From assembly GCA_965178125.1 (NCBI GenBank), contig OZ237762.1:186001-250000 (forward strand): a stretch of 64,000 nt of DNA. The letters run 5' to 3'. The stretch comes from Bilabrum cf. latius (taxonomy: Eukaryota). Position 1 is the first letter of the stretch; each line of letters begins with the position of its first letter. The position numbers and the translations under genes were made by a program. The notes under the pieces were generated by a model, which was not told the origin of the DNA, searched no databases, and saw only the letters and a list, made by a program, of their open reading frames with translations. Shown here piece by piece: positions 1-64,000 of the stretch.

Positions 1-1008
1 GTACGGGTTGCCGTTGCCGTCGGGCACACAGCTCGTCCTGCTCGTGTTCCAGAGCATGTACTCGTAGTTGCTGAGGGAGACAGAGGAGGCAAAGGGGCTG
101 GGCCCGAATCGCAGAGGGCTAGGGGGGGCGGGCCACTGCGGCTGCGGCTGCGACGAAGTAGATGGAGATGGAGATGGAGCTAGGGCAGGCCCTTGGGCCG
201 GGGCTGGCTACCTGCGGGGGGCGAGGGCGAGTGCGGCTGCGGCTGCAAGTCTCTGGCGATGGTCCTGACTGCCGGCCTGCACGGCGGGTTGTGCCCCCGG
301 ATAGTGCTCTGCAATCACCTCCCATATGGCCAGGTTGAAGTACGTGGCGGTCCGGTTCAGCATGTAAGAGTTCCAGACGTGGTAGTTTGAGCTCTGCCGG
401 ATGCTCTGCCAGAGATAGTCCGGCTAGGACTCGTTGAATTCCATGCCTTCGTCCTGCAGAGCAGTTTTGATCTCGGGCCAGCGCTGGTCTATCTGGATGT
501 AGAGGGCGCGCTGCTGCTTGCACTCGATCGAGGGACCCGGGTTGTCAAACAGCGGCCAGTTGGACAGCCATATCTCGGCATCGACGACGAAACGGTCTAA
601 TTCTCCTCCTATAGCAGAGTAGTTGCCAAAGAACTGCTCGAATCGCCGACGAACTTCGGATACCCCATTGTCCCACCACACCCCCGTGAATGTAGAATAC
701 TTGCTGGAACAGTTGGTCTCCGGCGGGAAGATGTTGTCGGCAGGTGAGTCCTCAATGCCCCTGTGGTACGTCCATGAGAACAACGTCTTCGCGAATGGCA
801 TGGCATCCGTGGCGTTTTTGGCCTCCAAAGCTGCCTGAGTGAAGTTGCTCTCATCTTTCAGCCAATGGAAGTACTGCACCGGCTTGCACTCGTCCCCGCA
901 CCCTGCAGGCGCGCTGGCAGGGGACCACGAGTCGCCAAAAAATTGATGGGGTCGGCATGCGCCTCCCAATGCGGCTCCAAGGATCGCGAAATGGAGAGAG
1001 GCATGCAT
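1..1008 (-). CDS. Hypothetical secreted protein, running off the left window edge
   Basis: ATG at 1008 gives a signal-peptide-like start (MHASLHFAILGAALGG). The frame continues past TAG at 424-426 and one more TAG near 208 to base 1 with no TAA/TGA. Confidence 0.6.
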
Positions 1009-1256
1009 GTCGGAGCCTGCTTGAGCCAGTAAATAGTAAAAAACAAAACAAAAAACATTATCAGCATTGTGGCAAACAGTATACTTAAATTTAGGCAGAC
1101 TTGCAGATGCTCTCACGCATTCTTGTGCTCGAAGCGTGCGCTAGTCGTCCCCCGCTGCACTGCAGCGGAACCTCCCCGGGAACTTCGGGCTGTGGCGGAC
1201 AACGGGCCGAACCGAAAATTGGGCTCGGGCAGGGGCGCCGTCCGATAGATAGACTA

Positions 1257-1385
1257 GTCCGCCATCTCAAAGTGCACGCGGCTCTCCAGCCCCAAGACAC
1301 GCACCCTCTCCTCCGCCCACTCCTTCTGCTCTCGGCTCAGGGTGATCCCCGTCACGCTCAAGCCGGGCACCATCAGCGGCATGCA
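1257..1385 (-). pseudogene. Short truncated duplicate of the CFA-synthase 3' region
   Basis: Encodes VPGLSVTGITLSREQKEWAEERVRVLGLESRVHFEMAD, matching 12724-12836; the similarity stops at about 1257. Confidence 0.75.
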
Positions 1386-2940
1386 CGGTGCACATGTGCT
1401 TCTTGAGATGACCTGCCTCCCCAAACCGCTTACCGCACACCCCGCACTCGTGATTGCGCTCCCCACCATGCACCACGGACAAGTGCTTCTTGAGAGTGCC
1501 TGTCCGCCCGAACCGCTTACCGCACACCCCGCACTCGTGATTGCGCTCCCCACCATGCACCACGGACAAGTGCGTCTTGAGATGGCCTGCCTCCCCAAAC
1601 CGCTTCCCGCACACCGCGCACTCGTGATTGCGCTCCCCACCATGCACCACGGACAAGTGCTTCTTGAGATCGCCTGCCCGCCCAAACCGCTTCCCGCACA
1701 CCCCGCACTCATGATTGCGCTCCCCACCATGCACCACGGACAAGTGCGTCTTGAGAGTGCCTGTCCGCCCGAAGCGCTTCCCGCACACCAAGCACTCGTG
1801 ATTGCGCTCCCCACCATGCACCACGGACAAGTGTCTCTTGAGATGGCCTGCCTTCCCAAACCGCTTCCCGCACACCAAGCACTCGTGATTGCGCTCCCCA
1901 CCATGCACCACGGCCAAGTGCGTCTTGAGATTGCCTGCCTGCCCAAACTGCTTCCCGCACACCCCGCACTCGTGATTGCGCTCCCCACCATGCACCACGG
2001 ACAAGTGCGTCTTGAGACTGCCTGCCTCGCCAAACCGCTTCCCGCACACCCAGCACTCGTGATTGCGCTCCCCACCATGCACCACGGCCAAGTGCCTCTT
2101 GAGACTGCCTGCCTACCCGAACCGCTTACCGCACACCAAGCACTCGTGATTGCGCTCCCCACCATGCACCACGGACAAGTGCGTCTTGAGATGGCCTGCC
2201 TGCCCAAACCGCTTCCCGCACACCCCGCACTCGTGATTGCGCTCCCCACCATGCACCACGGACAAGTGCTTCTTGAGATGACCTGCCCGCCCAAACCGCT
2301 TCCCGCACACCCCGCACTCGTGATTGCGCTCCCCGCCATGCACCGAGGACAAGTGCGTCCTGAGATGGCCTGCCTCACCAAACCGCTTCCCGCACACCAA
2401 GCACTCGTGATTGCGCTCACCCATGTGCACCACTGACACATGCCGCCTCAGGCTCGACATCGACCCCATCACCTTACCACACACCTCGCACATACACTCA
2501 ACCACAGCCACAGCCCCACCTGCCTCTCTCCGCCGTCTCTTTGAAGCAACCTAGATCCCCACCGCGGTACCCAGCCCAGAATCGGATCGCTGTCCCCGTC
2601 GGCTCCTGCCGCGCTTCTGGCCCAATGTGGCGGCTTCGGTGTCATTGACAGCGCTTGATACGTCCACAATGCGACTTGATGAAGAGATGCTGCCAGTAGC
2701 AACAGTGTCCGATGGCAGTCTGGCAGACGCTGCAGCGCTGCTCGCGCCAGACTCGGACCGGGCCCCTTGCTGCATAGCCACTGATTTCGCCGATCCACTG
2801 CTCCATTGCGCGTGTCCAATACCAAATGCTGGCTACTACGCTTCTGAACATCCAGGCTAGTCGTCATCGCTTCCGCTGCCACAGCTGCTGGAATCGCTCA
2901 CAAGATCAATCACTTCGGGGGCCACACTTCGGCTCGACAT
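1267..2940 (-). CDS. C2H2 zinc-finger array protein, copy 1 (13 fingers)
   Basis: Start MSSRSVAPEVIDLVSD. Contains 28-aa units HECxVCGKRFGxxGxLKxHLSVVH. One frame through TAGs at 2857, 2833-2838 (two in tandem), 2551 and 2113; ends TGA at 1267. Confidence 0.85.
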
Positions 2941-12212: not shown

Positions 12213-15200
12213 TCACTCCTCCGCGCCCCCCGGGAAATCGAACACAAGCACGTGCAGCCCAAGCGTCCTGCTCTGGAACCCGGCCTCGCAGTACACCAGG
12301 TAGTAGTTCCACAGACGGATGAACGCATCATCGAAGCCCAGCCCCCGCACCTCATCCAGCCTGGCGTTGAAGTTGCGCCGCCACACCCGCAGCGTCTCGG
12401 CGTAGTGCAGCGCCCTGTTCTCGCACGCGTGCAGCATCAGCCCGGACCGACTCGCCATCGCGTCCAGGAGCGCGCGCAGGGACGGGCAGCAGCCCCCGGG
12501 GAAGATGATCGTGTTGATGAAGTCCGCGCACCGGATGTACTCCTCGTACCTCGCCTCGGGCATCGTGATGGCCTGCAGCACCAGCCGGCCCGTGGGCTGC
12601 TTCAGCAACCGGCCGCACGCACCCATGAACGTCCCCAGGTGGTTGTGCCCCACGGCCTCCACCATCTCGCAGCTGAACACGCGGTCAAACTCGCCCTCGT
12701 GCGCCGCGGCAAACTCCCGGTAGTCCGCCATCTCAAAGTGCACGCGGCTCTCCAGTCCCAGGGCACGCACCCTCTCCTCCGCCCACTCCTTCTGCTCCCG
12801 GCTCAGGGTGATCCCCGTCACGCTCACGCCTGGCACGGTCTGCGCCAGGCGGATGCTCAGCCCTCCCCACCCGAACCCGATGTCCAGCACCCGCATGCCC
12901 TCCCTCACCGCCCCCGCCTTGATGAGCGTGTCCAGCTTGCGCACTTGGGCCTCGTCCAGTGTGCCCTCCAGGCGCGGGCACGCTCGGAACGGCACGGGGT
13001 CGGAGGAAGGCGCCAGCGGCCTGCGAGGCTTCCCTGGGCTGCGTGTGTCTGACTCCACCGCGGAGGCGCCCTCCTCGCTGGGCATCGCGCCGAACCTCCC
13101 GTCCTCGTACTCTCGCGCGGGGGCCTCCCTGAAGTACCCGCACGAGTACATCATGGTCGTGTGGTCCAGGAACGTCTCGAACAGCCCGTTGGAGAGGTCA
13201 TAGTGCGCGTGGATGTTCTGCCTAGACCCCGCGATGGTGTTGTCCAGGTTCAGACGGTAGGACAGAAAGTTCAGGCTTGACCCGACCCACGAAGTCCACA
13301 GCGAGCTCGCCTGGAACCCGGACTCTGCCCTGTCTCTGTTCCTCAGCAGCACAGCGAACAGCTGGCCCAAGTCGTCCACGGACCACTGGCCCGCCACGTA
13401 GGCCCGGCCCATCCCCAGGCTGGACTCGGATGCAACCCGCAGGAAGTATCCCCAGTCGTGCACCGCCACGTAGGCCCGCGGCAGCTGCTCAGCCACACCG
13501 AACACGTGCTCGAATCCGTCGGGCATTCTCATGATTAGGCAGCCCTCCTTGATCCCAGACCGGAGGAATGACAGCACGGGGTAGCTCGCGGCGCGATACA
13601 GGGCACCCGTCCCTAGAGCCGCGCCCTGCTTCAGCACCCATGCCGCGGTGCTCAGCGGTGCGAGGGCAGCCGCCACCATCCCGCGCCCGCAAGGGTCTCC
13701 CCGTGCCCCTCCGGCTCCGAGCGATGCCGCAGCCCCGGCACCACCGCCCCGGGATGCGTACAGGGCCAGCTCGGCGGCGGGCTCCGAGGGAACAACGGTC
13801 TCGTGCACCGAGCGACAGGCCCACTTGGCCAGAGACTCGCGAGACCGCCGGGTGTCCAACCCGGAGCCCCCCGCTGCAATGGTTCCTGCTCTAGCCTCTA
13901 CATCCAATGCGGCTGGCAGCGCCGTGTGCCCACCCACGGCGCCCAGCGCATCCGCAGCCGGTGCTCGAGTGCGCGTGCGAGCCACAAAGTGCGCCACGGT
14001 CCCCGGGATGTCCCTCTCGTCCGCCTCTTGGAAGCTCCCGACCGAGCCCCCGTTCCCCGCGGCCCCTGGCTTGGCCTCCCCGAAGACTCGCGCGAGCAGC
14101 ACCGACAGCACCGCCCGCTCCCTGGCCCCGGGCACCTTCTGGAACAGCTCCTCCTGCACGGCAGCGCCGCCCGATGGCCTGGCCCCGCCCCGGAGTGCCA
14201 TGAGGCTCTGGCGAGCGGCCTGGAGGACCCTCCTCCCCATCGAGGCGGGGGAGGTGTCCACCCCGCCCGCACCATCGTGCACTGCAGCCGACCCTCGCGA
14301 AGCCAGATCGGACGCACTCCCCTGCTTGCTCTCGCTCTCGCGGGCCTTGCCCCTGCCCCCGTGCTTCCCTGCGGTCACACTCTCTTGTTCCCTGGCACCG
14401 AGCACGTGTTCCCTGGCTGCTGCCAGCACGTCCTGCAGCCCCGGATCCACCAGAGCGGCGCCCATCCCACCGGTCGAGCGCCCGCCCTCCTCTGCTGTGG
14501 ACCTCGCTCGGCTCACGATCACGTCAGGCATGCCCAGGCTCGGCTCGCGCTCGTGCTCCTGCGCGCCGCTGCTGTCCGGAGCCCCGCCTGCGATCGTGCT
14601 CATCATCTCGTCCAGCAGCCCCAGGAGCCTGCCTGCTTCGGTTTGGACGGCGGTACCCAGGGATGCTCGCAGGGGCGACTTGCCCTGGACCCAGGGATCA
14701 TGCTTTGCGGCGTAGGGCAGGTACGCCGCTGCTGCTGCTGCTGCTGCATGCTTGCCACTGCTCTTGCCCTTGGTGGCGTGCATGCGACCTGCAAGGTCAC
14801 CCGCAGCAGGGGGTACGCCCGCGGGCCTCGTTGTTCCCTGGCTGCCCTCGGCTCTCCTGCGCCGAGCAGCGGCCGCCTCTAGCGCGACACCAACTCCCGT
14901 GCTGGCCATCCGCCCCACCACCTCTCCATCCCCTTCCTGTCCGCTGTCTCCATGCATCCCGCTCCTGCTGCTGCTGCTGCCTCCATCGGTGGCGCTGGCA
15001 CTTGCACCAACGATCGTCGGGCCTGGGAGCGCGGCATACACCCGCGTGGTGTCTGCCTCTCCCGGCAGCCTCCACCACTCGGGCACAACGTGTGTCATGC
15101 GAGCGGCGACGCGCAGCCCCGCAGTCAGCCCGTCCTCGTGGAAACCGTTGGCGGCGTATGCCCCGCAGAACCACGCCCCCTGCTGGCCCTGCACCTCCTC

Positions 15201-18872: not shown

Positions 18873-19594
18873 CCAATAGGATGTTGTAGTCTTTGGAAGA
18901 TTTGATGCTCGGCACTCTGGCAGAGGTCGCACGTCCACCTCGCGTGCGACCAACTTGTAGCACATCGAATGCCGGGTTGATCCAGTGCAGCGACTACAGC
19001 CGTAGGTTTGAACGAGTTCTGGATATACCGTGAAGTAGTCTGCTATTTAATCATTGTACAATGGGAAGGCTGCATTACCAGAATACCGGTAGCTACGGGT
19101 AGCCCTGACCCCAAAGAAGAATCTCACGTGACCGATCTTGCCCCCTGTAGGCGCATTAAGCTCGGAGTGACACGCGATTGGAATCTTACTGAAACAAAGT
19201 ATGCGCGGCTTCGTGCACGTGCGGTGCTCTGGCGCCGTCTTGCTATCCTTCGCGCTGGTTGGATCTGGAAGCGCGGGCTTGAGTTAGCCAGCGTTGTCTG
19301 CCAATCCGTAGGTCATGTTCAATATGTTTGCTGCTGACAGTTCCGTCCCGTTGAACTGGAGCTCACTGAATCTTTGGGAAAGGGCGGTTGACAGTTGCAA
19401 CGGTAAGCTTGACGACCTGCATTGCATGCCTAGTAGATGCTACGGCGCTACCGCTCGTGCACGCCAACTTCAAGTTGGCACGATACTGTGGATGCTTCAA
19501 TTGGATCTTTGCACCATGCTTATTTAGCGCAGCGACTTGGTTCGTGCTGCCGAACTCGTCCCACCTCGAAGTGGCAGGCTGGGCCGGCAGCCGT

Positions 19595-38405: not shown

Positions 38406-38611
38406 CTAAAATTGAGGTAGTAGACAGCGTTGATGGGCTGCAGATGGTCTCGCGATCAAGTGCAACGAAGCCTTGCGAACGTTCATTTCTGCGGGCTCGG
38501 TTTGCCAATCTCTATTAGGTTGGTGATTTGAGGTGCAGGAGGCCCATACATTGGGTCTCAATACTAGCAATAGGGTCTGCGATAGTATATCTCACTGGTT
38601 TCTGTATTGTA

Positions 38612-43692: not shown

Positions 43693-44076
43693 ACCCCTGC
43701 AACTTCCTGTGTGATGTCCTCTCCGGGTCTCCTTTGTTTCCTGGACACACTGCAGCGGGGCAGCATTTCGTGCCACTGGGTGGGACGGTCTTGCCTGCTC
43801 GTGCTTGGATTGCGTGTCTGTGTACGTGTTGAATTGAATGGCAGCTGCGTGCAAGCAGCCTCAAGATCGATATTTGCGTCGTTAAAAAGTAAAGAGAGCA
43901 TGTTCGTGGGGGTTGGGGCTATGATATTGTATGAAATCAAGGCCGGTTGGGGGGAAGGCCGGTTCAAGGGCCGGTTGTGGCGTTCATTGTAACGTTTGAT
44001 TTTCGACAGAGACATTCTGCTGGTATTTTTCGAGAAACTATAATCGATCGCCCTTTACGGGTGCTTCATCGTCTAC

Positions 44077-46523: not shown

Positions 46524-46565
<42 letters not shown>

Positions 46566-48852: not shown

Positions 48853-48929
<77 letters not shown>

Positions 48930-50733
48930 CCCGCTATCGGCGGCTTCCTCAGTCGGGTCTGGCCCAGACGCGTTCATGCCCGGCGGGTCGGCAGACAGGC
49001 AGCTGATGCAGTCGCACACGTTTGGGTTCAGGACAGAGCATGACAAAGAGCAGGACCAGGAAGACGGCCATGTGCTTGCGACTGACCAGCCGCGTGCAGG
49101 TACTGAAGAGCAAGGGCAACGGCGAGGCCGAGGCGGTCAAGCCAGAGACCGAGATGAGGATTTGGACCAGGACCAGCAAGATGGGAGGACCGTGTCACCG
49201 GATACCCCCGTGTCACCACCCTCCCTCCCCGGCTCCCCTCTCTTCAGCAGGAGGCAGCCCACCCCCGCAGGCGAGGGAAGCGCCCAGGGAACAAGGGGGC
49301 CTGCCTCGAGCAGGGAACAGCACAGCCGTAGCCGCACGACGTCCAGCGGGAGCAAGGGCAGCGGTGGCAGCAGCAGGACCAGCCGCAGCAGCGGAGGCAT
49401 GAAGAGGCAGGCCAAGTCCGTGGGGGAGGCGCTGTCATCTGCGGGGTCTAGCAGACGAGGCAAGCAAGCGAGTGGGGTGGGGCCAGGGCCAGCCGCAGCT
49501 TCCATGCAGGTGTCTTCTCGAAAAGGACAAGGCAAATCATGGCGAGGTGGAGGTAGAGCGGGCCAGGGCCAGGGCCGGTGCACAGTGGGCACCAGCTCGC
49601 CCTTGGCCTCCTCGATCCGGCGATCCATCAGCGTGCCATCGGAGCTGGAGGCGGCTGGCGCTGTGATCGAGATGGCCGCCAGGGAACAACGCAGAGCCAG
49701 GGCTCGGGTCCGTGCTGGGAAAGACAGCGCGGCTCGGGACCCCTGCGCGCTTCCCCAGGAGAGTGTTGGTCTGTCGGTGGACACGTCGTCATCGCGGCCT
49801 GGCAAGACCTAGGCCCAGGCCCCTTGGAGCACAGTGGCCGGTGCAGACCCCGGGAGCACCGGATCCGTGGCGGGGGCGGGGTCGCGCGCGGGCCCGAGTC
49901 CCGCCCACTCGACCGAAGTGAATGGGGCCCTCAGCGACAGGGAGTCGCCCAGGGAACAGTCACCTGGCTGGGGGGGCTCCTCTCAGTTGGGACGGAGGGG
50001 CCTGGGGTCTGCTGAAATCGATGTCCCAGGCAGCGGCACGCCGGGTGCATCGCGTGGTGGTGCCAGGGTGGTGGGCGGGCAGGGGGGTGCATCAGCGAGG
50101 AGGGCGCGGCTGGGCCAGCGCCTGGCTCGCTAGCTGCCTCGGTGGGAAGCGCAGCGGCTGCACGAGTGGGGCAGGGCCAGGGCCGAGGTGGCGAGGCGAG
50201 CTGCCGAGGCCAGGAGGAGAGAGAGGCAGGCATTGGCCGGTGGAAGTGGTGGAGCGGGTGGTCCGGTGATGGACCGGGAGGGCGTGTGGAGCGGGGGAAC
50301 AGGGACAGCATCAGCAGGCATCCCTGTTGCTGGTCCGTCGCCCGATGCTCTCTCGCCCGGGTCCACTTCCGGCTCCGGGTCCGGGTCGTTCTCCGATTCT
50401 TTGTCCGGGTCCGGCGGGGACATGAGCGGGAGCGAGGGTGAGGGCGGGGGCGGGGGCCTGGACGCGATGGGGTTCGTGAAGGGGTCAGGCGTGGGTCTGT
50501 CGATGCTGCGAGGGACGGGGGCGCTGCGGAGTTTGGGGATCGAGGAGGGCGGGGACGGGGATGGGGACGGGGGAAGGGAGGGGCTCGGACTGGCGACGTC
50601 TGCCCCAACGAGGGGGCTGTTTGGGTGGTCCGAGGGGCGGCGGCTGGACAACACCATGTGGGGGATCGGGGGGGAGGCGGGGTGGGTGCTGCCGCTGGAA
50701 GATGATGACACGAGTCCCGAGGGGGAGCCGTGA
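44077..50733 (+). CDS. FYVE zinc finger + ankyrin-repeat protein, about 2218 aa, mostly low complexity
   Basis: FTVFRRKHHCRLCG FYVE signature near 46850, and ankyrin motifs GEAPIHAAA, GRTALHVAA and GLTAIDLA. Eight ORF-track fragments share one frame joined by 10 TAGs; TGA at 50731. Confidence 0.8.
48856..48927 (+). repeat. (CAG)24 polyglutamine tract
   Basis: Pure CAG run in frame with the FYVE/ankyrin gene. Confidence 0.95.
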
Positions 50734-50993
50734 GGCAGGGAACAATCTGGGGAACAACTAAAACCAGGATGGGTGGGGCCGTTCGGCTGCCACCGGACTA
50801 CTTGAATCGATGGAGACAAAAGACAGACATTTTCAAACGTCCACAGGTTCCAGGTTCCGCACTGCCAGTGGCAGTGCGCGGCGGGCGAATCCCGCTTCAG
50901 CAATAGTGGGAAGAGCAAGACGAGCGTCGGCCCTCCAATCCAATCTAGCATTGCTTCGGAAATGTTTGTTTCCCCCTCCTGGAACTCGTCCTG

Positions 50994-52148
50994 ATGTCAT
51001 CGGGACCTGCGGTGGATGATGTGATTGGCCTGTCGAGTGGCAGGATGAGCGACGACGGCGAGATTCCTCTGCCGGCTTCGTTTGACAAATCAAGTAGTTA
51101 GGATAATAACGTCTCCAAAAGTCGTCGCATCTTGCGTGCAGGAGCCAAGCAATCTCACAGCAACACCGAGAGGACCGTGGCAAGCCTACCACTGGCAGTC
51201 GCAAGGTCGGCGGGCACATCCGCTCCTGCCAGTGGCGACGATATCGTACTTGCGATCGATGCAAAAAAGTTTTCCGCTGTCATGCTTGGACAGAAGAGGC
51301 TGCGCTCAGCACGATCTGGACCAGAAGCAATGAAGGCAAATGGAGCAGGCGGCAGGGGAGGATGCCATGAGTGCAAGGTGTGTGGGAAGGTGTTGAGCTC
51401 GGCGAGTAGCTTGAGGGGGCACGTGTCAGTGGTGCATCTTGGCGAGCGCAAGCACGAGTGTAGTGAGTGCGGGAAACGCTTCGGGGAGGCAGGCAGTCTC
51501 AAGAAGCATGTGAGCGCGGTGCATCTTGGCGAGCGCAAGCACGAGTGCAGTGAGTGCGGGAAACGCTTTGGGCGGACAGGTGGTCTCAAGAGGCACGTTT
51601 CAGTGGTGCATCTTGGCGAGCGCAAGCACGAGTGCAGTGAGTGCGGGAAGCGCTTCGGGCAGGCAGGCTATCTCAAGAAGCATGTGATCGCAGTGCATCT
51701 TGGCGAGCGCAAGCACGAGTGCAGTGAGTGCGGGAAACGCTTCGGGCAGGCAGGCAGTCTCAAGAGGCATGTGAGCGCGGTGCATTTCGGGGAGCGCAAG
51801 CACGAATGCATCGAGTGCGGGAAACGCTTCGGGCGGACAGGCCATCTCAAGAAGCATGTGAGCGCGGTGCATCTTGGCGAGCGCAAGCACGAGTGCAGTG
51901 AGTGCGGGAAGCGCTTCGGGGAGGCAGGCCATCTCAAGAGGCACATGTCAGTGGTGCATTTTGGGGAGCGCAAGCACGAATGCAGCGAGTGCGGGAAGCG
52001 CTTCGGGCATGCAGGCCATCTCAAGAGGCACATGTCAGTGGTGCATTTTGGGGAGCGCAAGCACGAATGCAGCGAGTGCGGGAAGCGCTTCGGGCAGGCA
52101 GGTGATCTCAAGAAGCATATGCGCACTGTACATGGGGAGTCAAGCTGA
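50994..52148 (+). CDS. C2H2 zinc-finger array protein (9 fingers), paralog of the 1267-10563 cluster
   Basis: Start MSSGPAVDDVIGLSS resembles MSSRSVAPEVIDLVS. TAG at 51099. Units KHECSECGKRFGxxGxLKxHVSxVH; TGA stop. Confidence 0.85.
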
Positions 52149-52416: not shown

Positions 52417-52662
52417 CATCCAGGATCGGATCAGGTCAGTGCAGCTCCACCCATCCAGGATCGGATCAGGTCAGTGCAGCTCCACCCATCCAGGATCGGA
52501 TCAGGTCAGTGCAGCTCCACCCATCCAGGATCGGATCAGGTCAGTGCAGCTCCACCCATCCAGGATCGGATCAGGTCAGTGCAGCTCCACCCATCCAGGA
52601 TCGGATCAGGTCAGTGCAGCTCCACCCATCCAGGATCGGATCAGGTCAGTGCAGCTCCACCC
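52417..52662. repeat. Perfect 35-bp tandem repeat, 7 copies, overlapping the B9D2 stop codon
   Basis: CCATCCAGGATCGGATCAGGTCAGTGCAGCTCCAC; CAGGATCGGA recurs every 35 bp from 52421 to 52631. Confidence 0.95.
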
Positions 52663-53613
52663 CGTGCGTCTTGAAGTTCCTAGCCACAATGTCCACCCGC
52701 ACATGCACCGTGCCGCTTCCTGTGGTCACCAGCGAGCCCCTCTCCGCCCGCCTGGAGTACAGGTACGACGTCCTCGCCAGCCGCAGGTTGCCACCAAGAT
52801 AAAAGGCGCTCATTTCCTCTGCGGGGGACCCCACCGGCCTCCAGGTCGCGATCGAGAGGGTGTGCGAGCCGGGGGTCTGCGGCAACTGAGCCACACCGTA
52901 CCCACACAGGTCTAATCTGCCATAGTCGTCAAGCTGCCACACCTCTAGCAAGAGTCGGGGCCAGCCCCGCAAGCTGCCGGCCTGCATGTGCACGTCAATG
53001 GGATGCGCCCACACGGCGTCAGATGTCGTGTCGCCTTGATATGCCGTGTGCGTCTATCCGCCCATGTCGCCTTCGCTTACTTCCCAGCCAGACTCTGCTT
53101 CTAATCCCGCCTCGATCGCCCACTTGCAAGTCACGCCATCCGGAAACCCAGTCCCACCAACGATTTCGCCGGCAATGTGCAGGTGGGGCTGCTGAAATGC
53201 TCGAGAAGCTGCTGCTGCTTCCGCAAGCACGTACTCTGCGACAAAAAAAAATCGCTTCTACATTCACGTACACCTTTGGTTCACCGAACAGCGCGGCCTG
53301 CTCATGATAAACTCAAGTGCAACTCACCCATGGATTCAAGAATATCCTCTCCCCCTGCCGGCTCGAAATTACGAAATTGCAGGGTCCTTCCATACTCAGA
53401 CGTCATTGGTTTCATTGCGCTTGCCGACGACTTGAGGATTCCGGTTCTATCCAGTGCGTCTCTCCGCTTTGGGCTAGAACCTGATCGTTTTATCCCGCTA
53501 GAGCTACGACCTATCCTTCCACTCTCCCTGTCAGATTCCTTGGGCTCAGTTGAGGCCTGAATATGCAAGTGATCTTCAGCACTACGGCTATCCCCACCCG
53601 CGACAGCCGCCAT
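52646..53613 (-). CDS. B9D2: B9 domain-containing protein 2 (ciliary transition zone)
   Basis: LHIAGEIVGGTGF...CKW...G[TAG]TH...WAHPIDVH...GWPRL...EVW...D.YGR..LCGYG...LP..PG.H...TWRP. Intron 53327-53236; TGA stop. The N-terminal extension is less certain. Confidence 0.88.
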
Positions 53614-53767: not shown

Positions 53768-54733
53768 ATGGCGGGTAAGTTTTGCGTGGGCCTAATACAT
53801 ATAACGATTGATTTCTGTAACGATATGCCTGGTGGGCGCACCAAATTCTTCGAGATGCCGAGAACGGCCGCACGCTGAAACTCGGAAGGGGAACACGAAG
53901 AACCCCAGGTATTTTGCCTATTCAGCACTCTGTATCACCCTAAGTTCGTTTCTATAGTACCAATAATAATTTGACCCATGTCATGCGCTCTTTCGCAGCT
54001 GTGGATGCTGGTGCGGCGACTCGGGTGTGTGAGTTAGATAGCGAGAGCCCACGGACATTCTACACCGCTTTCCATGCTTTTGAATGCTGATTATGAAATT
54101 TCGACCGGACATTGTATCGAAAGGCCATTTATTACATGTTAACGGAACGCAGACGTGGGAAACTTGTCGTGGGACACCACTGACGAGGGCCTGATGGACC
54201 TCATGGAGACCAAGGGCGCGGTGACTGATTGCAGCATCATGCGCAGGTACGACGGCAAGTCCAAGGGCTGCGCCATCGTGACCTTCGAGTCCGCTGACGG
54301 CGCCGCCGCAGCCATCGAGGGCCTCACTGACACGGAGCTGGACGGCCGCAAGATCTTCGTGCGCGAGGACCGCGAGGCGCCCGGCGCCGCGGCCTCCAAG
54401 CCCCGCAAGGAGCGCGCCCCCCGCAAGGAGCGTGCCCCCCGCCGCGAGCGCGCCCCCCGCGCCGAGCGTGCCCCCCGCGGGGACCGCCTGCCCGGCACCT
54501 CTGTGTACGTGGGCAACCTGTCCTGGGACGTGGACTGGAGGATCCTCAAGGACGCCTTCGCCAAGTACGGGGCCGTGTACTCGAACGTGAAGACGTACGA
54601 GGACGGCCGGTCCAAGGGCTTCGGCATCGTCCGCTTCGAGACCCCGGAGCAGGCCGCCCAGGCCATCTCTGAGATGCACGAGACGGAGCTGGAGGGCCGC
54701 CAGATCCTCGTGCGCGAGGACAGGGATGCTTGA
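53768..54733 (+). CDS. Two-RRM RNA-binding protein (Gbp2/Hrb1-like)
   Basis: Exons 53768-53774, 53999-54028 and 54153-54733 give MAAVDAGAATRVYVGNLSW. RNP1-like SKGCAIVTF and SKGFGIVRF; VREDR ends; TGA stop. Confidence 0.85.
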
Positions 54734-55140
54734 ATCTGAATCTGATCGATTACTTGCGTGCAACCCGGTGACCATGATTGTGGATGTGGCTGTGGGTGTG
54801 GCTAGCAGTAGCAGCAATGAGAGATGGGATTGAGGGGTAGACCATCTCTCTTTCCTCCTGTGCTTAGAAATGATGTGGATGCGTGGCGAGGTGTGGCGGA
54901 GTGGCGAGGCGCGGCGGAGTGAGGCGAGGCGCTCGGATTCAGGCTGGCACTGTTGAACAAAACAAAATCGTGCTCTGCGAACCAAACAAGGAGCCAGGCA
55001 CGTGACAGTTTCACCGGCAGCAGCCAGATTGTTCACCTAGCTCCGAGTTGCCCACAAGTCAAGTGCAACGCTTGGCGGTACATACGGATTATACGGCACC
55101 AGCATGGCACAATTAGATAAACCTGTTACAATTTGTTAAA

Positions 55141-56481
55141 ATGGCCCGAAGTATATGGCAGGTATCTACTGCTTTGCCGCGCGCAGTGGCTGCAAAGTTT
55201 TATCGGCAACTGTGCTCTGGAACTAGTCACAAGTCAGCCAGTATTTATCAAATGCACGTGTCAAACTTGCCTAGAAGTATAACATGGTTCCAGCTAGAAG
55301 CACTAGCGTGGCCAGCTCGCGTTGAGTACGCATGGGTTAGCAAAAGCCCTGTTCCGAGTACATAGCTGGGCTGGGGCATCTTGCGGTTCTCCTCTGCAGA
55401 TGAATACAAACGAGCTCAGCATCACTTGTCCATGACGAAAGTAAATGGATCAATTCTGCATTGTAAGCATGACGATAGGCTCCAGCAGCGCTTTAAGCAT
55501 GCAGCAATGGAGGCGATGCTATCGAGCATGCAGGCCCGGGACGACGGGGACAAGCCGCCCGAGCCTTCCAGGAAGAAAGGACGCTCCAGAGCGCGACGAT
55601 TATTGTCTGGACTTCACGTGCAACGAAGCTCCAGCTATCGCGAAGAAGCTCTGAAGGAGAGCATGGGCGAGGCCGAAGAGGACGACGACGACACTGCCGT
55701 GCAGCCCGGGAGGCAGCTGTGGGACGTCGGGGCGGCGACTGATCCCCATGCCGCAGCACCGTCCTCGTCTCAAGCTGGTGCCCCGGTAGGAGCAGACCCC
55801 ACCGCCCCACTGCACCCCGCAACTGCCCCGCCGTCCAACAAGCCCGGAACCCTTGCCAGTCACTCCCACAGCCGCAAGCAGCAGCAGCAGCAGCAGCTGG
55901 GCCAGCAGCTGGGGATGGAGGCGGGCCGGCGGGCCACGGCGGGTGGTGCTCCCGCCCCCCGCAGATCGAAAAGGCACGGGCCAGGCAGTGTCCACCTGCG
56001 GCCCGGATAGCGACTCCGAATCCATGCCTCCGCTGGCAAGCACTGGCGGGCTGGGTATGCGGTGGAGGGCAAGGGCAGCAAGGCTGGCAGCCGCGCGGCG
56101 CCCTAGGTTCCGCTTCCCGAGCTGCAACACCACGTGGGCGAGTCTGTGCACCTGCCAGAACTGCACTCGTCACACATTGTTGCCTCGGGGGCCGGGCCTG
56201 GCAGTGGCGCAGGGGTCACGGTGGACGTGGAGCGGGGGAGGCCGAGCAAGCAGGCGCTGGTGCGGGCCTTCCAGCTGGCCTGGGGAACACTGCGGTAGGA
56301 GAGGGGTGCCAAGGGAGCTGAATGGAGCGAGGGGGAGTCTGACCGGCTGAAGGAGGAGTTCCTGGCCGCTGTGGAGGAAGGGGGGGCTGCTGCCGGGGTG
56401 CTCGGTGGTGCCAATGCATCCCGCACGATGCGGGCTGGCGACGAGCACTCGGTCAGCGACCGCGACCGGGGCAGGCAATGA
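55141..56481 (+). CDS. RRM-like protein with a possible mitochondrial presequence
   Basis: MHVSNLPRSITW...[TAG]LGWGILRFSS is an RRM pattern split by TAG 55363. Further TAGs at 56008, 56104 and 56296; TGA at 56479. Confidence 0.6.
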
Positions 56482-56644: not shown

Positions 56645-57379
56645 ATGGCAGCTCTCAACAAGGCTCTCCGTTCACTTTACCGTTCGTCGCTTTCGCTCTC
56701 CCGCCACTCGGCCCGCCGGCCCGTCCCGGGAAGCTCCGCAGTTCAGCAGCTGAGCTCCGCAGCATCCCAATCGTTCGCGCTGCCCGATCTTGATTACGAC
56801 TACGGCGAGCTCGCACCCCACATCGCGCCGCGCATTATGGAAGTGCACCATTCAAAGCACCACCAGACCTACGTTACGAACCTGAACAACGCGATGGAGC
56901 AGTATGAGAAGGCGCAGGCCACGAACGACGTGGCACAAATGGTCGCGCTGCAGAACGCCATCAAGTTCAACGGCGGTGGCCACGTGAACCATACTATCTT
57001 CTGGAAGAATTTGGCCCCCCCTGAGAAGGGTGGAGGCGGTGAGCCCGAAGGCGAGCTCGCCAAGTACATCGAGAGCGAGTTCGGCTCGTTCGATTCTTTC
57101 AAGAGCACATTTGCCGCGAAGACTGCCGCCGTGCAGGGCAGCGGCTGGGGCTGGCTCGGATATGACAGCGGCAAGGACAAGGTCGTCTTCCAGGCGATGG
57201 CGAACTAGGATCCGCTCTCAACGACCGGCCTGGTTCCGCTGCTCGGGGTTGACGTGTGGGAGCACGCCTACTACCTGCAGTACGAGAACCGCCGCCCTGA
57301 CTACCTGAAGGAGATCTGGAGCATCGTGAACTGGGGCGACGTGGCTGCACGCCTGGCAGACGCCAAGAAGGGCAACTGA
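56645..57379 (+). CDS. SOD2: Manganese superoxide dismutase, mitochondrial type
   Basis: [34 protein letters not shown][TAG]DPL and DVWEHAYY. N-terminal transit-like peptide; TGA at 57377. Confidence 0.97.
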
Positions 57380-57712: not shown

Positions 57713-58555
57713 TCATTCCACCCCGAACGGATCACCTGCATCCTCTGCCCCTTCCCCTTCTTCTCCCTCTCCTTGCTCTTCCTCGGACTCTCCATCATCC
57801 GCGCTATCCCCTGCCGCTGCTTGCGGTCTACTGCCGTACGCCTAGTCATCCCCTTCTACACTACCCCCGGATGGCCCGTACAGACTCGAGCCTTCCTGCT
57901 CTTCCTCTTCCTCCTCCCCCTCCCCCTCGCTCACCCCCAGCACTGCCGCCCGCGACAAGTTGGCCCCGTCCACCCTGCCCCACTGCGAGGCAGGCCCAAA
58001 TGCACCCATTTCACCAAACTTCTCGCCACTACCTATCCGCTAATCAGCATCATCGCCACCGTACAGCCGCCTTAGGCGGGCGAGCGCAACCTCGCGGGAG
58101 GTTGGCGGGAGCAAGTCGCTCGTGTCCAGCATCTCGTCGTACCCCAACATCCTTCCGCGAGTGGCCCTAGCATTCTAAAACCCACCCACAGACAGCATTG
58201 CACCAGCAAACGTAACCATAAGTGATAATACCACTTCTACTATGACCTGCAACGTGATAGGTGTGGGTAGGCGGTAAGCATAAGCTTGTAGTGTTCGAGC
58301 ACAGCATCGGAAGCAGCTCAGCCAGTGCATCTCACGTCAATAGGAGCATCAACTTCAATATCCAGTCCGTATCGCTCCGCTACCAAGTTCTCATCTGCGC
58401 AAATAATTCGAAATGACTTGAAATATACTTCTTTAGGCTGAATTTGCGAGGGAGCCACTCGCACCGAGCATCACTGCCTTACACTGGATGTACGAGACAC
58501 CAGCATGAACCATCAAGGCGATACCCGCGGCAGTTACAAGTCTACCCAACAACAT
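57713..58555 (-). CDS. EMC5/MMgT-like small membrane protein with an acidic tail
   Basis: Three exons: MLLGRLVTAAGIALMVHAGVSYIQ / YENLVAERYGLDIEVDAPID / VIVEVVLSLMVTFAG. Three in-frame TAGs; TGA at 57713. Confidence 0.6.
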
Positions 58556-58678
58556 GCTAGATTTTGCCCAAAGATTTTTACAGCGTAGCAAAGGGTCGAT
58601 CTGATTTTTGCAGGGCGAGCATACGGTAAGGTGCAGTTTCGACAAAATGGCAGTTGTACCATTCGAAGCCACTGCACC

Positions 58679-61600
58679 ATGCAAGACGAATTGGGTGGAT
58701 TCTATGACGAAGCAAATGAAATTCTTGGTGTTAGCAGAGAGGCTCACCGCTCTCATGGGGGCGCCCCAGACGCGGATGCCCAGTTCGCACGGGCAATGCC
58801 ACCTCACCAACGGCAACCGCGACGGGATGTCGCACGTAGGCGAACCGAGCGCCGATCTCCGAGAGCGCGGGGAGTAAATTAGCACTCACACACAGCCTCG
58901 CATCAGCGCACGAGCGTGGCAAGCCGTCCGAAGCATCCCCGCCGGCAGCGAGAGATGACAAGAGCTGAGCGTGCCCGTGCGGCTGCCATTGCAGAGCAGC
59001 GGGTGGTTGCCTCGACGGAGTCGCACATGGCACAGCCAGGTACAGCTCGTAGTTCGTTGCCATCGATACGTGGCAGTGGTTCCTCTGGGGCTGCTCCTCT
59101 AGGTGCCCAGGGCAGCAGCGGCATGGGCTCGCCGAATTCCAGGCGAGCAGCTGCACAGAGTGTCGCGCAGCGAGCACGCCGCCGAGCCTCCGAAATGGAG
59201 GGCAATATTGCAGAATAGCCCGTGTCCGCACGGCGAGGTGAAGCAGGCGCCGCGCCCTCTGATGCTGGAGACGGCGCCTCTAACGCGCAACACCACCCGG
59301 CGGCTGGCGGCGCTCGTCACACTGGCCCCTCCCTCCCTAGCCGCCTGCGCGGGGACGCCACGGTGGAGGAGCGAGCCGACCACGCGCGGCAGCTGGTGGT
59401 TGCCTTGCGGCGGGAGGACCGGGAACGGAAGGCGAGGGCGAGGGCCCGTCTGGAGGCCGAGACCAAAGGGGTGGAGAGGGAGCTGGCCCTGTTCGACGAA
59501 CTGAGACAGGCCAAGGAAGAGCAGGTGAGGGAGGAGAAGGAGAGGCAGAAGCAGGAGAGGAGGGAGAAATTCCTCAAGAAACAGGCAGAAGTGCGGGCCC
59601 GTATCGCGGCCATTGGGGGAGGGGGCAAGGGGGCCTAGGGGACGAGGACCAGGGCAGGCGAAGGGGCTGGCAGGCAAAGGCACGGACCCAGTGGCAGTGG
59701 CAGGGGCAGTGGAGCAGGTGGGCGGAGGCATGGCGGTGGGGTGCGTGGTCAGGGGGGGCGAGGGAATAGGGGGTTCGAGATGGGGGTTGCACCCCCCGGC
59801 ATGGGAGCGGGGGGGATTCACCTGGGGGTGCATGGGGGTCCCACGTCCGGGAGGCACCCCGCTGGTGGCGCCAGGACTAGGGGAATAGGAATGGGAAGGG
59901 CAGGGGCTTCGTCTGGCCGGTCCCGGGGCGGGGTTGCGGGTGCGGGTGGTGTGGCGCGACAAGCCGACGGGTCGTACCTGATTCCTCCCTAGGGTGTGGA
60001 GATGCCCGGCCTGGAGCTCGGGCTCGGGGCTCAGGTGGTGCCTCTGGGGGGGCGGGCCATGACCCCGAGGGAGGCACAGGAGAGGGAGAGGAGGAGGGCG
60101 GCGGACCCGAGGAGCGGGGGCAGCGGGGGCAAGCGGAGAGGGGGTATGGGAGCCGGGGGGAAGGGCACGGGCAGGGGCACGGGCGGTGGGGGTCTGGCGA
60201 GCCCGGGGCGCGGGGGGCACCGGAGGCACGGTTCCGGGGCTGCAGGCAGTGCCAGGAGCAGGGGCAGTGGGAGCTAGAGGCAGAGGCAGCGGGGGCTAGG
60301 GGCCCCGCACCGCAGTCCCCTGCAGTCTCCTGTGGCAGCGGCAGGCAGCCCGGGGTCGGGGTCGAGGATGCACGTGTCGGCCGCGAGGGCCCTCTCGATG
60401 GAGAGTGATGGTCCCCCACCAGGGGGGGAAGGGGTGCGGCCCACTCCCCCCCGCGGCCGTGCCGCTTCTCCCATCCCGAATGCCGGAGGCTCAGCTGGAT
60501 CAGGGGCAGGGGCAGTGGCAGGGGCAGGGGCAGGGGCAGGGGCTTGGGCCGCGAATGCTGTTGATGGCGGGGAGCACACGGGCGATCACGGGCCGCACTC
60601 GTCGTACCCCCACCGGGGCAGGAGACTGCACGCCCATGGGCGGCATCCGCACGATGGTGTGATGAGTGAGGAGCGGCACGCCCGAGGGGAAGAGGGCCAG
60701 TTGAGGTCTGTGAGCCACCCTAGACACGAGCACGATGAGCACCAGGCGCACCCCCCTGATCACCAGTGTGAGCAAGGCGAGGACGAAGCGGGGGAATGGG
60801 AATAGGAAGATTAGGAAACCGCGGGTGTGGATGAGGACGACCCGTACGCCGCCCCCTCCCCCAGAGCATCTGATGCGGCCCCCTCCCCCAGAGCATCTGA
60901 TGCGGCCCCCTCCCCCAGAGCATCTGAAGCGGCGCCTTTACCCAACCAGTCCGATGCCACTGCACCTGCTCCAGTGTCGCGGGCAGAGCGCAGGAGGCTG
61001 CGGCTGGAGGCCATGGAGAGGAGGAGGAAGGAGCAGGAGCGAGAGACCAGGGAACAATCAAATGCATTGCATGACGGTGCAGATGCAGCCGTGGATGCTT
61101 CCATGGAGGGAGAGGGGGAGGGCAAGCTGGACCAGGAGCATGGGCTAGAGCTAGAGAGCGGTCCGGATCCGGACCATGGGCAGCGTGCCAGCTCTCCTCT
61201 GGGGTCTCCTGTCAGGGCACAGGGCAGCGAGGGAGCCTCTAGCCCTGGTAGCAGCAGGGGCAGGGGCAGGAGCACATCACGCGCGTCAGGGGGCGCTCGG
61301 TCGGCAGGGCGGGCGGGACGCGGTGAGGTGGACGTGTCTCCGGTGCGTGTGGAGGAGCTGTCACCCAGACGGAGGGCGGGCCAGGGCACAGGCGCGGGGG
61401 GTGCGGCGGCGGCCGAAGCAGGTCCCTCGCACGGTGCCGATGAGCCGCCGAGATCGTCCTCGCCGGCGGGTCATGATAGGCATGCCAGCGGGGTGTCCAC
61501 AGCGGAGGAGATCGAGGCGCTTGCGGATGCACCATTTGAGGCAGGGGGTCTGTTGGGCGGTGATAGCGATGGAGACGACGAGGAGCTGGAGAACGGAGAT

Positions 61601-63454
61601 GCAAAGGTTAGCGAAGATGGGGACAGCAGGGACAGAGACGGGATCGATGGAAGCGAGGGGCCATTGGCGGCGAATAGCCTAGGTGGTGGTGCCGAGGAAG
61701 AAGGAGAAGAGGAGCCATTGGCGGCGAATAGCCTAGGTGGTGGTGCCGAGGAAGAAGGAGAAGAGGAGCCATTGGCGGCGAATAGCCTAGGTGGTGGTGC
61801 CGAGGAAGAAGGAGAAGAGGAGCCATTGGCGGCGAATAGCCTAGGTGGTGGTGCCGAGGAAGAAGGAGAAAAAGAGCAAGACATGGGGGGTGATGTGGAT
61901 AATGATTCTATCGGGGAGCAGCCTTAGAAGACTGAGGAAATCCCTGACGACTTGGCCAGCCAGAAGGTAGAATCGAAAAGCCCGAGGGAACAAGCTGACG
62001 GACCCGTAAACTCCGCCGCGGATATCGAGGCCTTGATGCAGCAGCCATTCGGGGAGCACATCGATGCTGACGGCGGCACTGCAGACGGCAATCTCGGCTA
62101 TGATAATATTGCTGATGCTGCAGACGAAGCTGAGACTGGTGCTGCAGACGAGACTGGTGCTGCAGACGAGGCTGAGACTGGTGCTGCAGACGAGGCTGAG
62201 ACTGGTGCTGCAGACGAGGCTGAGACTGATGCTGCAGGCGAAGCTGAGAATGATGCTGCAGACGAGACTGGTGCTGCAGACGAGGTTGAGACTGATGCTG
62301 CAGGCGAGGTTGAGACTGGTGCTGCAGACGAGGCTGAGACTGGTGCTGCAGACGAGACTGGTGCTGCAGACGAGGCTGAGACTGGTGCTGCAGACGAGAC
62401 TGGCGATGCAGTCGAGGCTGAGACTGGTGCTGCAGACGAGACTGGTGCTGCAGACGAGGTTGAGACTGATGCTGCAGACGAGGCTGAGACTGGTGCTGCA
62501 GACGAGACTGATGCTGCAGACGAGGTTGAGACTGGTGCTGCAGACGAGGCTGAGACTGGTGCTGCAGACGAGGTTGAGACTGATGCTGCAGGCGAGGTTG
62601 AGACTGGTGCTGCAGACGAGGCTGAGACTGGTGCTGCAGACGAGACTGGTGCTGCAGACGAGGCTGAGACTGGTGCTGCAGACGAGACTGGTGATGCAGT
62701 CGAGGCTGAGACTGGTGCTGCAGACGAGGCTGAGACTGGTGCTGCAGACGAGACTGAGAATGATGGTGCAGACGAGGCTGAGACTGGTGCTGCAGACGAG
62801 GCTGAGACTGGTGCTGCAGACGAGGCTGAGACTGGTGCTGCAGACGAGGCTGAGACTGATGCTGCAGACGAAGCTGAGGCTGATGCTGCAGACTAGACTG
62901 GTGCTGCAGACGAGGCTGAGAATGATGCTGCGGGTGAGGCTGATGCTAGCACTCTGGAGCAAGCAGGTGATGGCACCACCGTGTTGTCCTCATCGGCTGG
63001 GCTGGATCAGCCGTCATTCGTGCTGGCGTCGCAGGGTGCAGGGGACTGTGGTGCATCCCCCGCACACGATGCTGCGGCAGGCGCCTTCAGCCCTGGGGGC
63101 GTCAACGATTCGGTGCTGAGCGGCCCCTTGGACGATTTGGAGAACACAGCGGACCTAGATGGCACAGTGATGCTTGCAGGATCTGTGGTGCTGCCACCGG
63201 GAGCGCTGGCGGGAGCGGGAGCCGGAGCAGGGGCGTCAGCCGGTGAAATGTTGGCTGGTGCTGGGGGATAGGCACCCGTGGGTGGTGGAGAAGAGAGCAG
63301 CCGCCTTCAAGACAGCCAAGCAGGCCATAAGGATGCAGTGCGCGGGCATGAGAGTGCAGATGCACCATCAGGGGGCGGGGAGGATGGCCAAGCGAACGGA
63401 ACTGACGGACACACCGGTGAATTTGAGTAGGACAGTGTCGACGGGGGCAGCTAA
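58679..63454 (+). CDS. Large low-complexity protein (about 1591 aa) with a coiled coil and acidic repeats
   Basis: Nine ORF-track fragments in one frame joined by 11 TAGs; ends TAA at 63452. Confidence 0.65.
61661..61870 (+). repeat. 54-bp coding repeat, about 4 copies (PLAANSLGGGAEEEGEEE)
   Basis: Copies start at 61661, 61715, 61769 and 61823. Confidence 0.9.
62113..62930 (+). repeat. Degenerate 18/24-bp coding minisatellite, AADE(AE)TG
   Basis: Mixed GCTGCAGACGAGGCTGAGACTGGT and GCTGCAGACGAGACTGGT units. Confidence 0.9.
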
Positions 63455-63759
63455 TGCACATGAAATACCTAAGTGACTTTAGACTACGCTGCGTGGTTTT
63501 TGTTCTGTTTTGTGCTTTTCTCCTGCGGCGCCCAAGCCAACACAACTCCCTTGCAGATCGCAAGCACACGCCTGTGACTACGACCATATCGTGAGGTTGC
63601 CGCCACACCCACACACCACCCATCCACTCCATTATTCATCCATCCTCAGGAGTACAGAATCGATTGAACACTCCGCACTCCAACCTTCGCTGAAAGCTTC
63701 GCTAGCGCTGGCAGCAGTAGCAAGCAATCCGCCATCTCCCCAGGGACAGTCCCTGGCGC

Positions 63760-64000
63760 TTACACGCGCTTCACCCTGTACCTGTGAGTCACCTGCACGC
63801 TAGCCTTGCCGCCAGTCGGCCTGGTCAGCACCCATCCGCACTCCTCCTTGGGGCATACAACGATCGCGTTGGCGTGGCTGAACACGGTGGTGATGGTGCC
63901 GCAGTTGCTGCACTCGATGTCCAGGAAGTTCGAGTTGGGAGTCTGAACAAGACGAGCCTTCTTGTGCATGGTCTTCTCATCGGCAGCGCTGGGGTTCAGC
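63760..64000 (-). CDS. RPS27: 40S ribosomal protein S27, 5' end outside the window
   Basis: HKKARLVQTPNSNFLDIEC..C..ITTVFSHA...C...L.RPTGGKA; ends with TAA at 63760-63762. Confidence 0.93.
   Translation of the reverse strand, partial: LNPSAADEKTMHKKARLVQTPNSNFLDIECSNCGTITTVFSHANAIVVCPKEECGWVLTRPTGGKASVQVTHRYRVKRV

Follow-up and report, generated by a model that had tools for sequence, protein, structure and literature searches.

In the window, by which we mean the whole 64,000-nucleotide stretch of contig OZ237762.1 analysed here (Bilabrum cf. latius, assembly GCA_965178125.1, positions 186,001 to 250,000 of the forward strand), the codon TAG is, with very little doubt, a sense codon for glutamine. 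The complete assignment that we favour, and hold with good confidence, is UAG as glutamine with UAA and UGA both kept as stops in nuclear genes, which is the pattern of NCBI translation table 15. The glutamine assignment follows from conserved sites, from the codons found opposite TAG in orthologs of a related species, and from the persistence of TAG in contigs derived from spliced RNA, and these lines of evidence back the same proposal made in an initial annotation of the sequence. The window has a GC content of 58-68% and its two strands together carry some two dozen eukaryotic genes, in many of which frame and homology continue past in-frame UAG.

The longest open reading frame (ORF) that the window yields with the standard code comprises 1058 codons; with TAG as a sense codon, ORFs of 2229, 2104, 1670, 1591, and 1468 codons are obtained. 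The 20 ORFs bounded by TAA or TGA that were taken as genes contain 99 in-frame TAGs. Trimming of 5′ parts lacking a coding signal gave 18 gene models with 13,507 codons, in which 62 TAGs and neither an internal TAA nor an internal TGA occur in frame. In-frame TAG is present in 15 of the 18 models and, next to 399 CAG and 87 CAA codons, makes up about 11% of the glutamine codons. The manual count of about 80 in-frame TAGs given in the initial annotation was a fair estimate, with the qualification that some of them lie in leaders and one, at 53260, in an intron. Left out of the 18 models were g19171, an ORF at 1-1266 on the minus strand, the OB-fold gene, ZNHIT3, g57713, and the exon of RPS27; the 14 TAGs of g19171 do not enter the count of 62 because its coding signal is weak and its repeat is open in three frames. 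In a codon-usage frame test, for which the gene being scored was excluded from its own training, frame 0 ranked first on either side of most TAGs, including the 104-codon tail of an ABC half-transporter, and the failures concerned chiefly the 5′-most segments, which were read as leaders. The other two frames of the coding places contain 215 TGAs versus 20 TAGs. The numbers of stop triplets flanked by at least 100 open codons on both sides/on at least one side were 46/206 for TAG, 26/295 for TGA, and 1/57 for TAA. Since the codons following the 62 TAGs are of 30 different kinds, no readthrough context is apparent.

Residue identity and transcripts

Positions of UAG match glutamine in homologues at the active site of manganese superoxide dismutase (MnSOD), in a column of the ciliary transition-zone protein B9D2, and in pairs of orthologous codons, the latter with the support of a likelihood calculation. 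With its TAG masked as X, the MnSOD of the window aligns without gaps to solved structures in the PDB, X standing opposite the glutamine of the human N-Q-D-P motif. This column holds glutamine in every chain shown except one engineered variant, and the site is Gln143, the catalytic outer-sphere residue. For B9D2, no solved relative was found in the PDB; among the 14 homologues covering its TAG, glutamine occurs ten times, lysine three times, and histidine once. A public predicted protein (P0002), which is 99% identical to B9D2 and has a different, intron-derived N-terminus, shows Q at this column; it may come either from another strain with CAG at this position or from a gene caller that reads TAG as glutamine. 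In an amine-oxidase domain, alignments to PDB entries extend to either side of the TAG in a single frame. The glutamine contexts named in the initial annotation were likewise located, namely N-TAG-D at 57206 in MnSOD, G-TAG-T at 53056 in B9D2, FG-TAG-AG beside FGQAG in the zinc-finger units, and GQGQG-TAG at 45376.

A related species is represented by L001, a metagenome contig of 9,663 nucleotides with 54% GC that was obtained in a contig scan with the B9D2 alignment; a further contig, L002, is identical over its length. The B9D2 of L001 shares 88% protein identity and about 72% DNA identity with that of the window, and the contig carries orthologs of five further window genes. These six orthologs contain 7, 0, 7, 1, 4, and 1 in-frame TAGs (20 in total) and no internal TAA. 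In the 20 ortholog pairs at TAG, the codon opposite is CAG in six, TAG in one, and another codon in 13, the non-glutamine partners being located mostly in poorly conserved parts and several of them being A, S, T, or R. Where the identity of the flanks is at least 60%, the partners are Q (four), TAG (one), A (one), and R (one). A likelihood over 19 ortholog pairs, built on the substitution counts of the same six ortholog alignments, places glutamine ahead of the next residues (Ser, Asn, Ala, Glu) by about 10 ln units. Ordinary glutamine codons face glutamine in 36 of 82 cases; for TAG the figure is 6 of 19. In-frame TAG is absent from the B9D2 loci with at most 51% identity, three of which terminate in TAG; because these distant loci lack in-frame TAG, the change of UAG is considered common to the window species and the L001 species and not to the next relatives found. 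It would have arisen in an ancestor shared by the two species. The gene order of L001 is unlike that of the window, the orthologs of the genes at 36.7-39 kb, 52.6-56.5 kb, and 50 kb standing together within 9.7 kb.

Sequencing run X1 gave positions 52700-60490 as one unspliced contig. Four GT..AG intervals that are kept in X1 are skipped in contigs of runs X5 and X7, which belong to one study, and of run X6, which belongs to another (Table 1); for this reason these contigs are considered to derive from spliced RNA. Of the 17 TAGs tabulated in 52700-60840, 13 lie in these contigs, and no other letter, gap, or joint occurs at any coding TAG; the TAG sites of MnSOD and B9D2 are covered in all three spliced runs. 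The remaining four are 58586, 59636, and 59990, which lie outside the listed contig pieces, and 53260, which lies in a skipped intron. For individual genes, RNA-derived contigs span 56632-57661 of the MnSOD region without any other letter, exon 2 of B9D2 is covered unchanged by contigs of X5, X6, and X7, all five TAGs of the gene at 55006..56481 are retained, and in the low-complexity gene g58442 five of the eight TAGs of its part within the stretch examined are covered. UAG is thus kept in mature mRNA at the 13 covered TAGs in two studies, and because TAG is unchanged in the RNA-derived contigs, splicing-out, editing, and assembly errors, to which the initial annotation had pointed as possible sources of the TAGs, are excluded at these sites.

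Stop codons and competing readings

The 22 ORFs of the window end in TGA (19) or TAA (3), the six genes of L001 in TGA (4) or TAA (2), and TAG is needed as a stop in none of the 22 and none of the six, in agreement with the initial annotation, according to which no gene ends in TAG. Few ends among these ORFs are defined by homology; none of them requires TAG. The C-termini of MnSOD, of the cyclopropane-fatty-acyl-phospholipid synthase (CMAS), and of an RRM protein agree with those of their homologues, and all three genes end in TGA. TGA is clearly a stop. TAA, with fewer cases, is likely to be one as well: treating it as sense joins no coding ORFs and lengthens genes only by short stretches that lack a coding signal. 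The B9D2 gene of L001 ends ...L-TAG-TAA exactly where that of the window ends ...L-H-TGA, which fits TAG as glutamine followed by a TAA stop. The TGA ends at 12213, 18870, 43690, 50731, and 57377 and the TAA ends at 25483, 31552, and 63452 given in the initial annotation were all recovered. Its assignment of the TAA at 63760 as the stop of RPS27 probably does not hold: this TAA, which follows the RPS27e exon, probably lies in an intron of about 107 nucleotides (CAG/GTGACT...TTTCAG/), and the next exon would then encode ..RRLECGVFNRF.. and have TGA as its stop. In three genes, namely g58442, the F-box gene, and g25690, a TAG is located 7 to 12 codons before the stop. About 1.2 such cases are expected, so that the excess is slight and not significant, and TAGs at 7 and 12 codons before the stop indicate that TAG is not depleted near 3′ ends. 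A further in-frame TGA or TAA follows within ten codons of the stop in 8 of the 22 ORFs, for example in the RRM gene at +1 and +3; these triplets may serve as back-up stops.

A number of points weigh against the proposed code. Strongly conserved columns hold only two TAG sites, those of MnSOD and B9D2. The TAG of the amine-oxidase domain sits in a loop and is silent on the residue, as are those of the ABC transporter, which occupy variable or loop positions outside the regions aligned to PDB entries; the column at TAG 17661 of the DUF1365 protein is variable and uninformative (R 40, E 17, T 16, K 14, A 13, and Q 13 of 149 in a profile search). In a test based on the neighbours of glutamine, TAG was not singled out (9/62 versus 30% for glutamine and a mean of 12%). 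The codons summed over ORFs of at least 500 codons amount to 9,783 with the standard code, 10,001 with TAA as sense, 27,917 with TAG as sense, and 37,270 with TGA as sense, so that the sum for TGA exceeds that for TAG; long open stretches on both flanks are also found for 26 of the 295 TGAs mentioned above, and a sliding coding score that disregards stops yielded, at its loosest threshold, 17 TGAs beside 28 TAGs and one TAA. The statistics taken alone favour TAG and are not decisive, the controls being only partly clean. The stray TGAs fit open off-frames in GC-rich DNA and terminal stops inside the smoothing window: TGA is the commonest stop triplet, long off-frames are open in DNA of this composition, and the longest frame with TGA as sense reaches only 1204 codons. 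As to termination, TAA is the stop of three ORFs of the window and two of L001, among which the B9D2 gene of L001 alone has an end defined by homology, and in two of the TAA cases (g58442 and L001 B9D2) a TGA follows within three codons. The TAGs near the ends of three genes and the TAG-TAA of L001 B9D2 leave room for some TAG stops. Finally, the RNA nature of the contigs of X5 to X7 is deduced solely from their spliced joints.

Four other readings were considered. A code in which UAG and UAA both specify glutamine (UAR = Gln, the type of NCBI table 6) and UGA is the sole stop, UAA being rare in a GC-rich genome, would suit the TGA ends of 19 of the 22 ORFs, the TGAs close behind two of the TAAs, and the homology-defined ends checked, all of which are TGA. 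It is nevertheless unlikely, since the CAA:CAG ratio of 87:399 predicts roughly 13 TAAs in the 13,507 codons that hold 62 TAGs, and no internal TAA was found. Reading TAA as sense extends genes at most by short tails devoid of coding signal, the TAA of L001 B9D2 stands exactly at the conserved C-terminal position, and L001, at 54% GC, has 20 TAGs and no internal TAA in its six orthologs. An ambiguous UAG, which would specify glutamine inside genes and serve as a terminator for certain genes or close to their 3′ ends, as in codes of the Condylostoma, karyorelict, or Blastocrithidia type, would account for the three ORFs with a TAG 7 to 12 codons before TAA or TGA, for the ...L-TAG-TAA end of L001 B9D2, and for the extra in-frame stops within ten codons past the stop in 8 of 22 ORFs. 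We regard it as very unlikely: the C-termini defined by homology (MnSOD, CMAS, RRM protein, and the B9D2 of the window) are never TAG, three cases against 1.2 are no significant excess, the tail of the ABC transporter past its last TAG scores as coding, and in such codes the ambiguous codon is depleted immediately before genuine stops, where TAG does occur in the window, albeit in a small sample.

Next to no credence can be given to the possibility that the TAGs are not translated, be it as nonsense codons of pseudogenes, as C-to-T errors of sequencing or assembly, or owing to splicing or RNA editing. Position 53260 is indeed intronic and several other TAGs lie in 5′ leaders, but 62 in-frame TAGs stand against no TAA or TGA, the X1 DNA contig and the contigs of the three other runs agree letter for letter with no joint at a coding TAG, the independently assembled L001 shows the same usage, and gap-free alignments run through TAGs in MnSOD, B9D2, and the amine-oxidase domain; at the 13 covered sites, this explanation is refuted. 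A residue other than glutamine (Glu, Lys, Leu, Ser, or Tyr, to name some), as found in other lineages in which UAG has changed, might be suspected from zinc-finger units with E, R, or K at the TAG position, from a tandem repeat with Glu there in its other units, and from the several ortholog partners that are A, S, T, or R. It is extremely improbable in view of the MnSOD site, which is Gln in all chains shown bar the engineered mutant, the B9D2 column with Gln in 10 of 14, and the lead of Gln by about 10 ln units over Ser, Asn, Ala, and Glu in the 19 ortholog pairs.

Known codes, decoding, and significance

UAG as glutamine with UAA and UGA as stops is the known table-15 pattern, probably in a new lineage. 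As far as the excerpted text of the papers cited here and below goes, UAG alone was reassigned to glutamine in Iotanema spirale, Protocruzia tuzeti, and two phyllopharyngean ciliate lineages (PMC11687900, PMC5304391), and the lineages with UAG alone as a sense codon comprise Iotanema, Protocruzia, some phyllopharyngeans, one rhizarian, and Scotinosphaera (McGowan et al. 2024, PMC11687900), UAG being decoded as leucine in Rhizaria sp. exLh (PMC5304391) and as serine in Scotinosphaera (PMC8271138). The last two share with the window the change of UAG alone and, probably, the retention of UAA as a stop (PMC5304391, PMC8271138), but differ in the residue, which is Gln in the window. In the fornicate Iotanema (Panek et al. 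2017, PMC5304391), UAG aligns with Gln, as in the window, and UAA and UGA terminate, as they probably both do in the window; UAG was, according to that paper, never seen as a bona fide stop, and none of the ORFs described here needs it as one. The share of UAG among the glutamine codons is also similar (about 8% in Iotanema, PMC5304391, and about 11% in the window). The stop usage differs, with 104 UAA and 15 UGA in Iotanema (PMC5304391) versus 19 TGA and three TAA in the window. In contrast to Iotanema, the window has 58-68% GC and encodes an MnSOD with an N-terminal extension read as a mitochondrial presequence; the Iotanema data are transcriptomic and comprise 126 genes (PMC5304391), compared with one 64-kb window and the 9.7-kb contig of a relative in the present case.

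Protocruzia tuzeti and the phyllopharyngeans (PMC11687900) have the same codon change and have kept UAA as a stop. The window differs from these ciliates in being a multigene stretch of 64 kb with GT..AG introns of 88-124 nucleotides and a high GC content. Macronuclear chromosomes of those ciliate lineages are AT-rich and often gene-sized. Codes with UAR as glutamine (ulvophycean algae, hexamitids, oxymonads, and Amoeboaphelidium protococcarum; PMC8271138, PMC6299283, PMC5304391) resemble the window in the conversion of a stop to Gln and in the dominance of TGA, but these lineages also use UAA as Gln, whereas the window has no internal TAA. An aphelid was considered as the source and ruled out, since Amoeboaphelidium has about 40% GC (PMC10608142, table 1), compared with 62% taken for the window, and is reported to use both TAG and TAA (PMC6299283). 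Ulvophytes of the Trentepohliales-Cladophorales-Dasycladales are reported to use TAR (PMC8271138). An ulvophyte identity is not supported, as TAR usage differs and no TGTAA was found before the two 3′ contig ends inspected, those of the MnSOD and RRM genes, the latter being a weak point against core chlorophytes. TGTAA is the poly(A) signal of chlorophytes.

In the full-text literature, subscription journals and supplements aside, no paper was found on a GC-rich non-ciliate lineage with UAG as glutamine besides Iotanema. We tentatively put forward, as a serious possibility that falls somewhat short of an even chance, an undescribed independent origin of the reassignment of UAG alone to glutamine. 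The lineage, neither ciliate nor fornicate, would comprise two or more species, be GC-rich and probably aerobic, build cilia, and use UGA as its main terminator. If this is true, the explanations by AT pressure that are usual for UAR reassignments cannot apply, and the lineage would allow the capture of UAG to be tested under GC pressure, where mutation favours UAG and not UAA as a stop. Nuclear code changes are rare, and a parting of ways of UAG and UAA is rarer still. Here, a rare code change occurs in an unusual compositional setting, and the sister species and the transcripts are already public; genomic DNA, spliced transcripts, and the sister species together would permit the change to be dated and the suppressor tRNA and the substitutions in eRF1 to be found. 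In practical terms, annotation with the standard code would cut short most of the long genes (15 of the 18 models contain TAG), so that gene callers need table 15.

With respect to decoding, UAG would be read as glutamine at all positions, with no special context, and UGA would act as the main and UAA as the minor terminator. The decoding tRNA may be a tRNA-Gln with the anticodon CUA, which a single mutation separates from tRNA-Gln(CUG); such a tRNA cannot read UAA. Its partner would be an eRF1 that has lost the recognition of UAG by its N-domain and has kept that of UAA and UGA. A mechanism with tRNA-Gln(CUA) and an altered eRF1 was argued for Iotanema (PMC5304391). The 64-kb window, L001, and L002 contain no tRNA gene, and the window contains neither a match to an Rfam family nor the eRF1 gene.

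Gene content of the window

The features assigned in the window are compiled in Table 1. Several of the low-complexity genes have no family assignment.

Table 1 Genes, exons, and spliced intervals of the 64-kb window
Feature	Position	Strand	Characteristics
Four tandem C2H2 zinc-finger genes	1267-3174, 3970-5679, 6385-8094, 8800-10848	-	Pfam zf-C2H2; all end in TGA
Amine oxidase-like + cyclopropane-fatty-acyl-phospholipid synthase fusion	12213..16619	-	Pfam CMAS, E=1e-65; TGA end
DUF1365 gene	17334..18872	+	Pfam DUF1365; TGA end; TAGs 17661, 18357; frame test
g19171, probable gene with internal tandem repeat	19171..25485	+	TAA end; 14 TAGs in open frame
g25690, unknown family	25690..28851	-	TGA end; two TAGs within last 31 codons
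ABC half-transporter	28936..31404	-	Pfam ABC_tran, ABC_membrane; TGA end; TAGs 29992-29994, 29251-29253
F-box-like protein	31552..36327	-	23-residue unit repeated about 30 times; TAA end; 11 TAGs
Unknown-family gene	36669..38591	-	TGA end; L001 ortholog with 7 TAGs
OB-fold protein, SOSS-B1 type	38609..39010	+	PDB match SOSS-B1; TGA end; no TAG in coding part
Sodium:solute symporter family gene	41343..43692	+	Pfam SSF on both pieces; TGA end; no TAG
FYVE plus ankyrin protein	44044..50733	+	Pfam FYVE, Ank; 2229-codon frame; TGA end; 10 TAGs, one of them in GQGQG-TAG at 45376
Fifth C2H2 zinc-finger gene	50709..52148	+	TGA end; same unit type, 40 kb from the tandem four
B9D2 (ciliary transition-zone B9 protein), exon 2	52646..53235	-	TGA end; Pfam B9-C2, E=1e-44; TAG 53054-53056
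B9D2 intron, spliced interval	53236..53327	-	GTGAGT...CGCAG, 92 nucleotides; holds TAG 53260; joint 53235->53328 in X5, X6, X7, not X1
Spliced interval	54029-54152	gene's strand	Joint in X7 only
Two-RRM RNA-binding protein	54153..54733	+	Pfam RRM_1; TGA end; no TAG in part shown
Gene with RRM-like N-terminal part	55006..56481	+	TGA end; TAGs 55114, 55363, 56008, 56104, 56296
Mn superoxide dismutase	56645..57379	+	Intronless; TGA end; Pfam Sod_Fe_N, Sod_Fe_C; TAG 57206-57208 at active-site Gln
Spliced interval	about 58245-58335	gene's strand	89 nucleotides
Spliced interval	58395-58482	gene's strand	GT..AG ends
Low-complexity protein g58442	58442..63454	+	TAA end, TGA two codons later; 12 TAGs
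Ribosomal protein S27e exon	63760..63999	-	Pfam Ribosomal_S27e

The MnSOD domain is preceded by an N-terminal extension of 43 residues, which may be a mitochondrial presequence and would then imply an aerobic lifestyle; the start ATG is preceded by another TAG, at 56639. In the B9D2 gene, the start ATG is formed by the last bases of exon 1 (ATGG/GTGAGT), so that the coding part of this exon consists of one codon plus one base. The TGA of the two-RRM gene is located at the same place as in its L001 ortholog, and the intron at 54029-54152 lies upstream of the part shown. The OB-fold ORF has TAGs upstream of its start, which was placed by comparison with the L001 ortholog, and the FYVE plus ankyrin protein has an ortholog of its C-terminal part in L001. 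Since the symporter gene spans two frames, an intron or a frame change inside it is assumed.

The zinc-finger genes are built from C2H2 units of 87 nucleotides (29 residues), and the four tandem copies have near-identical N-terminal parts, in which the TAGs are conserved; FG-TAG-AG occurs in two finger units. A trio of bacterial type (amine oxidase, DUF1365, and cyclopropane-fatty-acid synthase) occupies 12213-18872, the fused oxidase-synthase gene, with a TAG at 15390-15392 within its oxidase domain, being oriented head to head with the DUF1365 gene. The F-box-like protein contains the motifs Q-TAG-Q-TAG-P and A-TAG-V-TAG-R-TAG-A-TAG-S. The coding signal of g19171 is confined to the part from about 21700 on, and all three plus frames are open across its repeat. 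Near-perfect long tandem repeats are present inside ORFs at 33200-35200 (-), 19800-21600 (+), and 62112-62943 (+). Real genes also have very long open frames on their antisense strand, such as one of 1493 codons at 11746-16227 (+) opposite the oxidase-synthase gene when TAG is read as sense; such antisense frames are an effect of the GC content and can mislead ORF-based gene calling.

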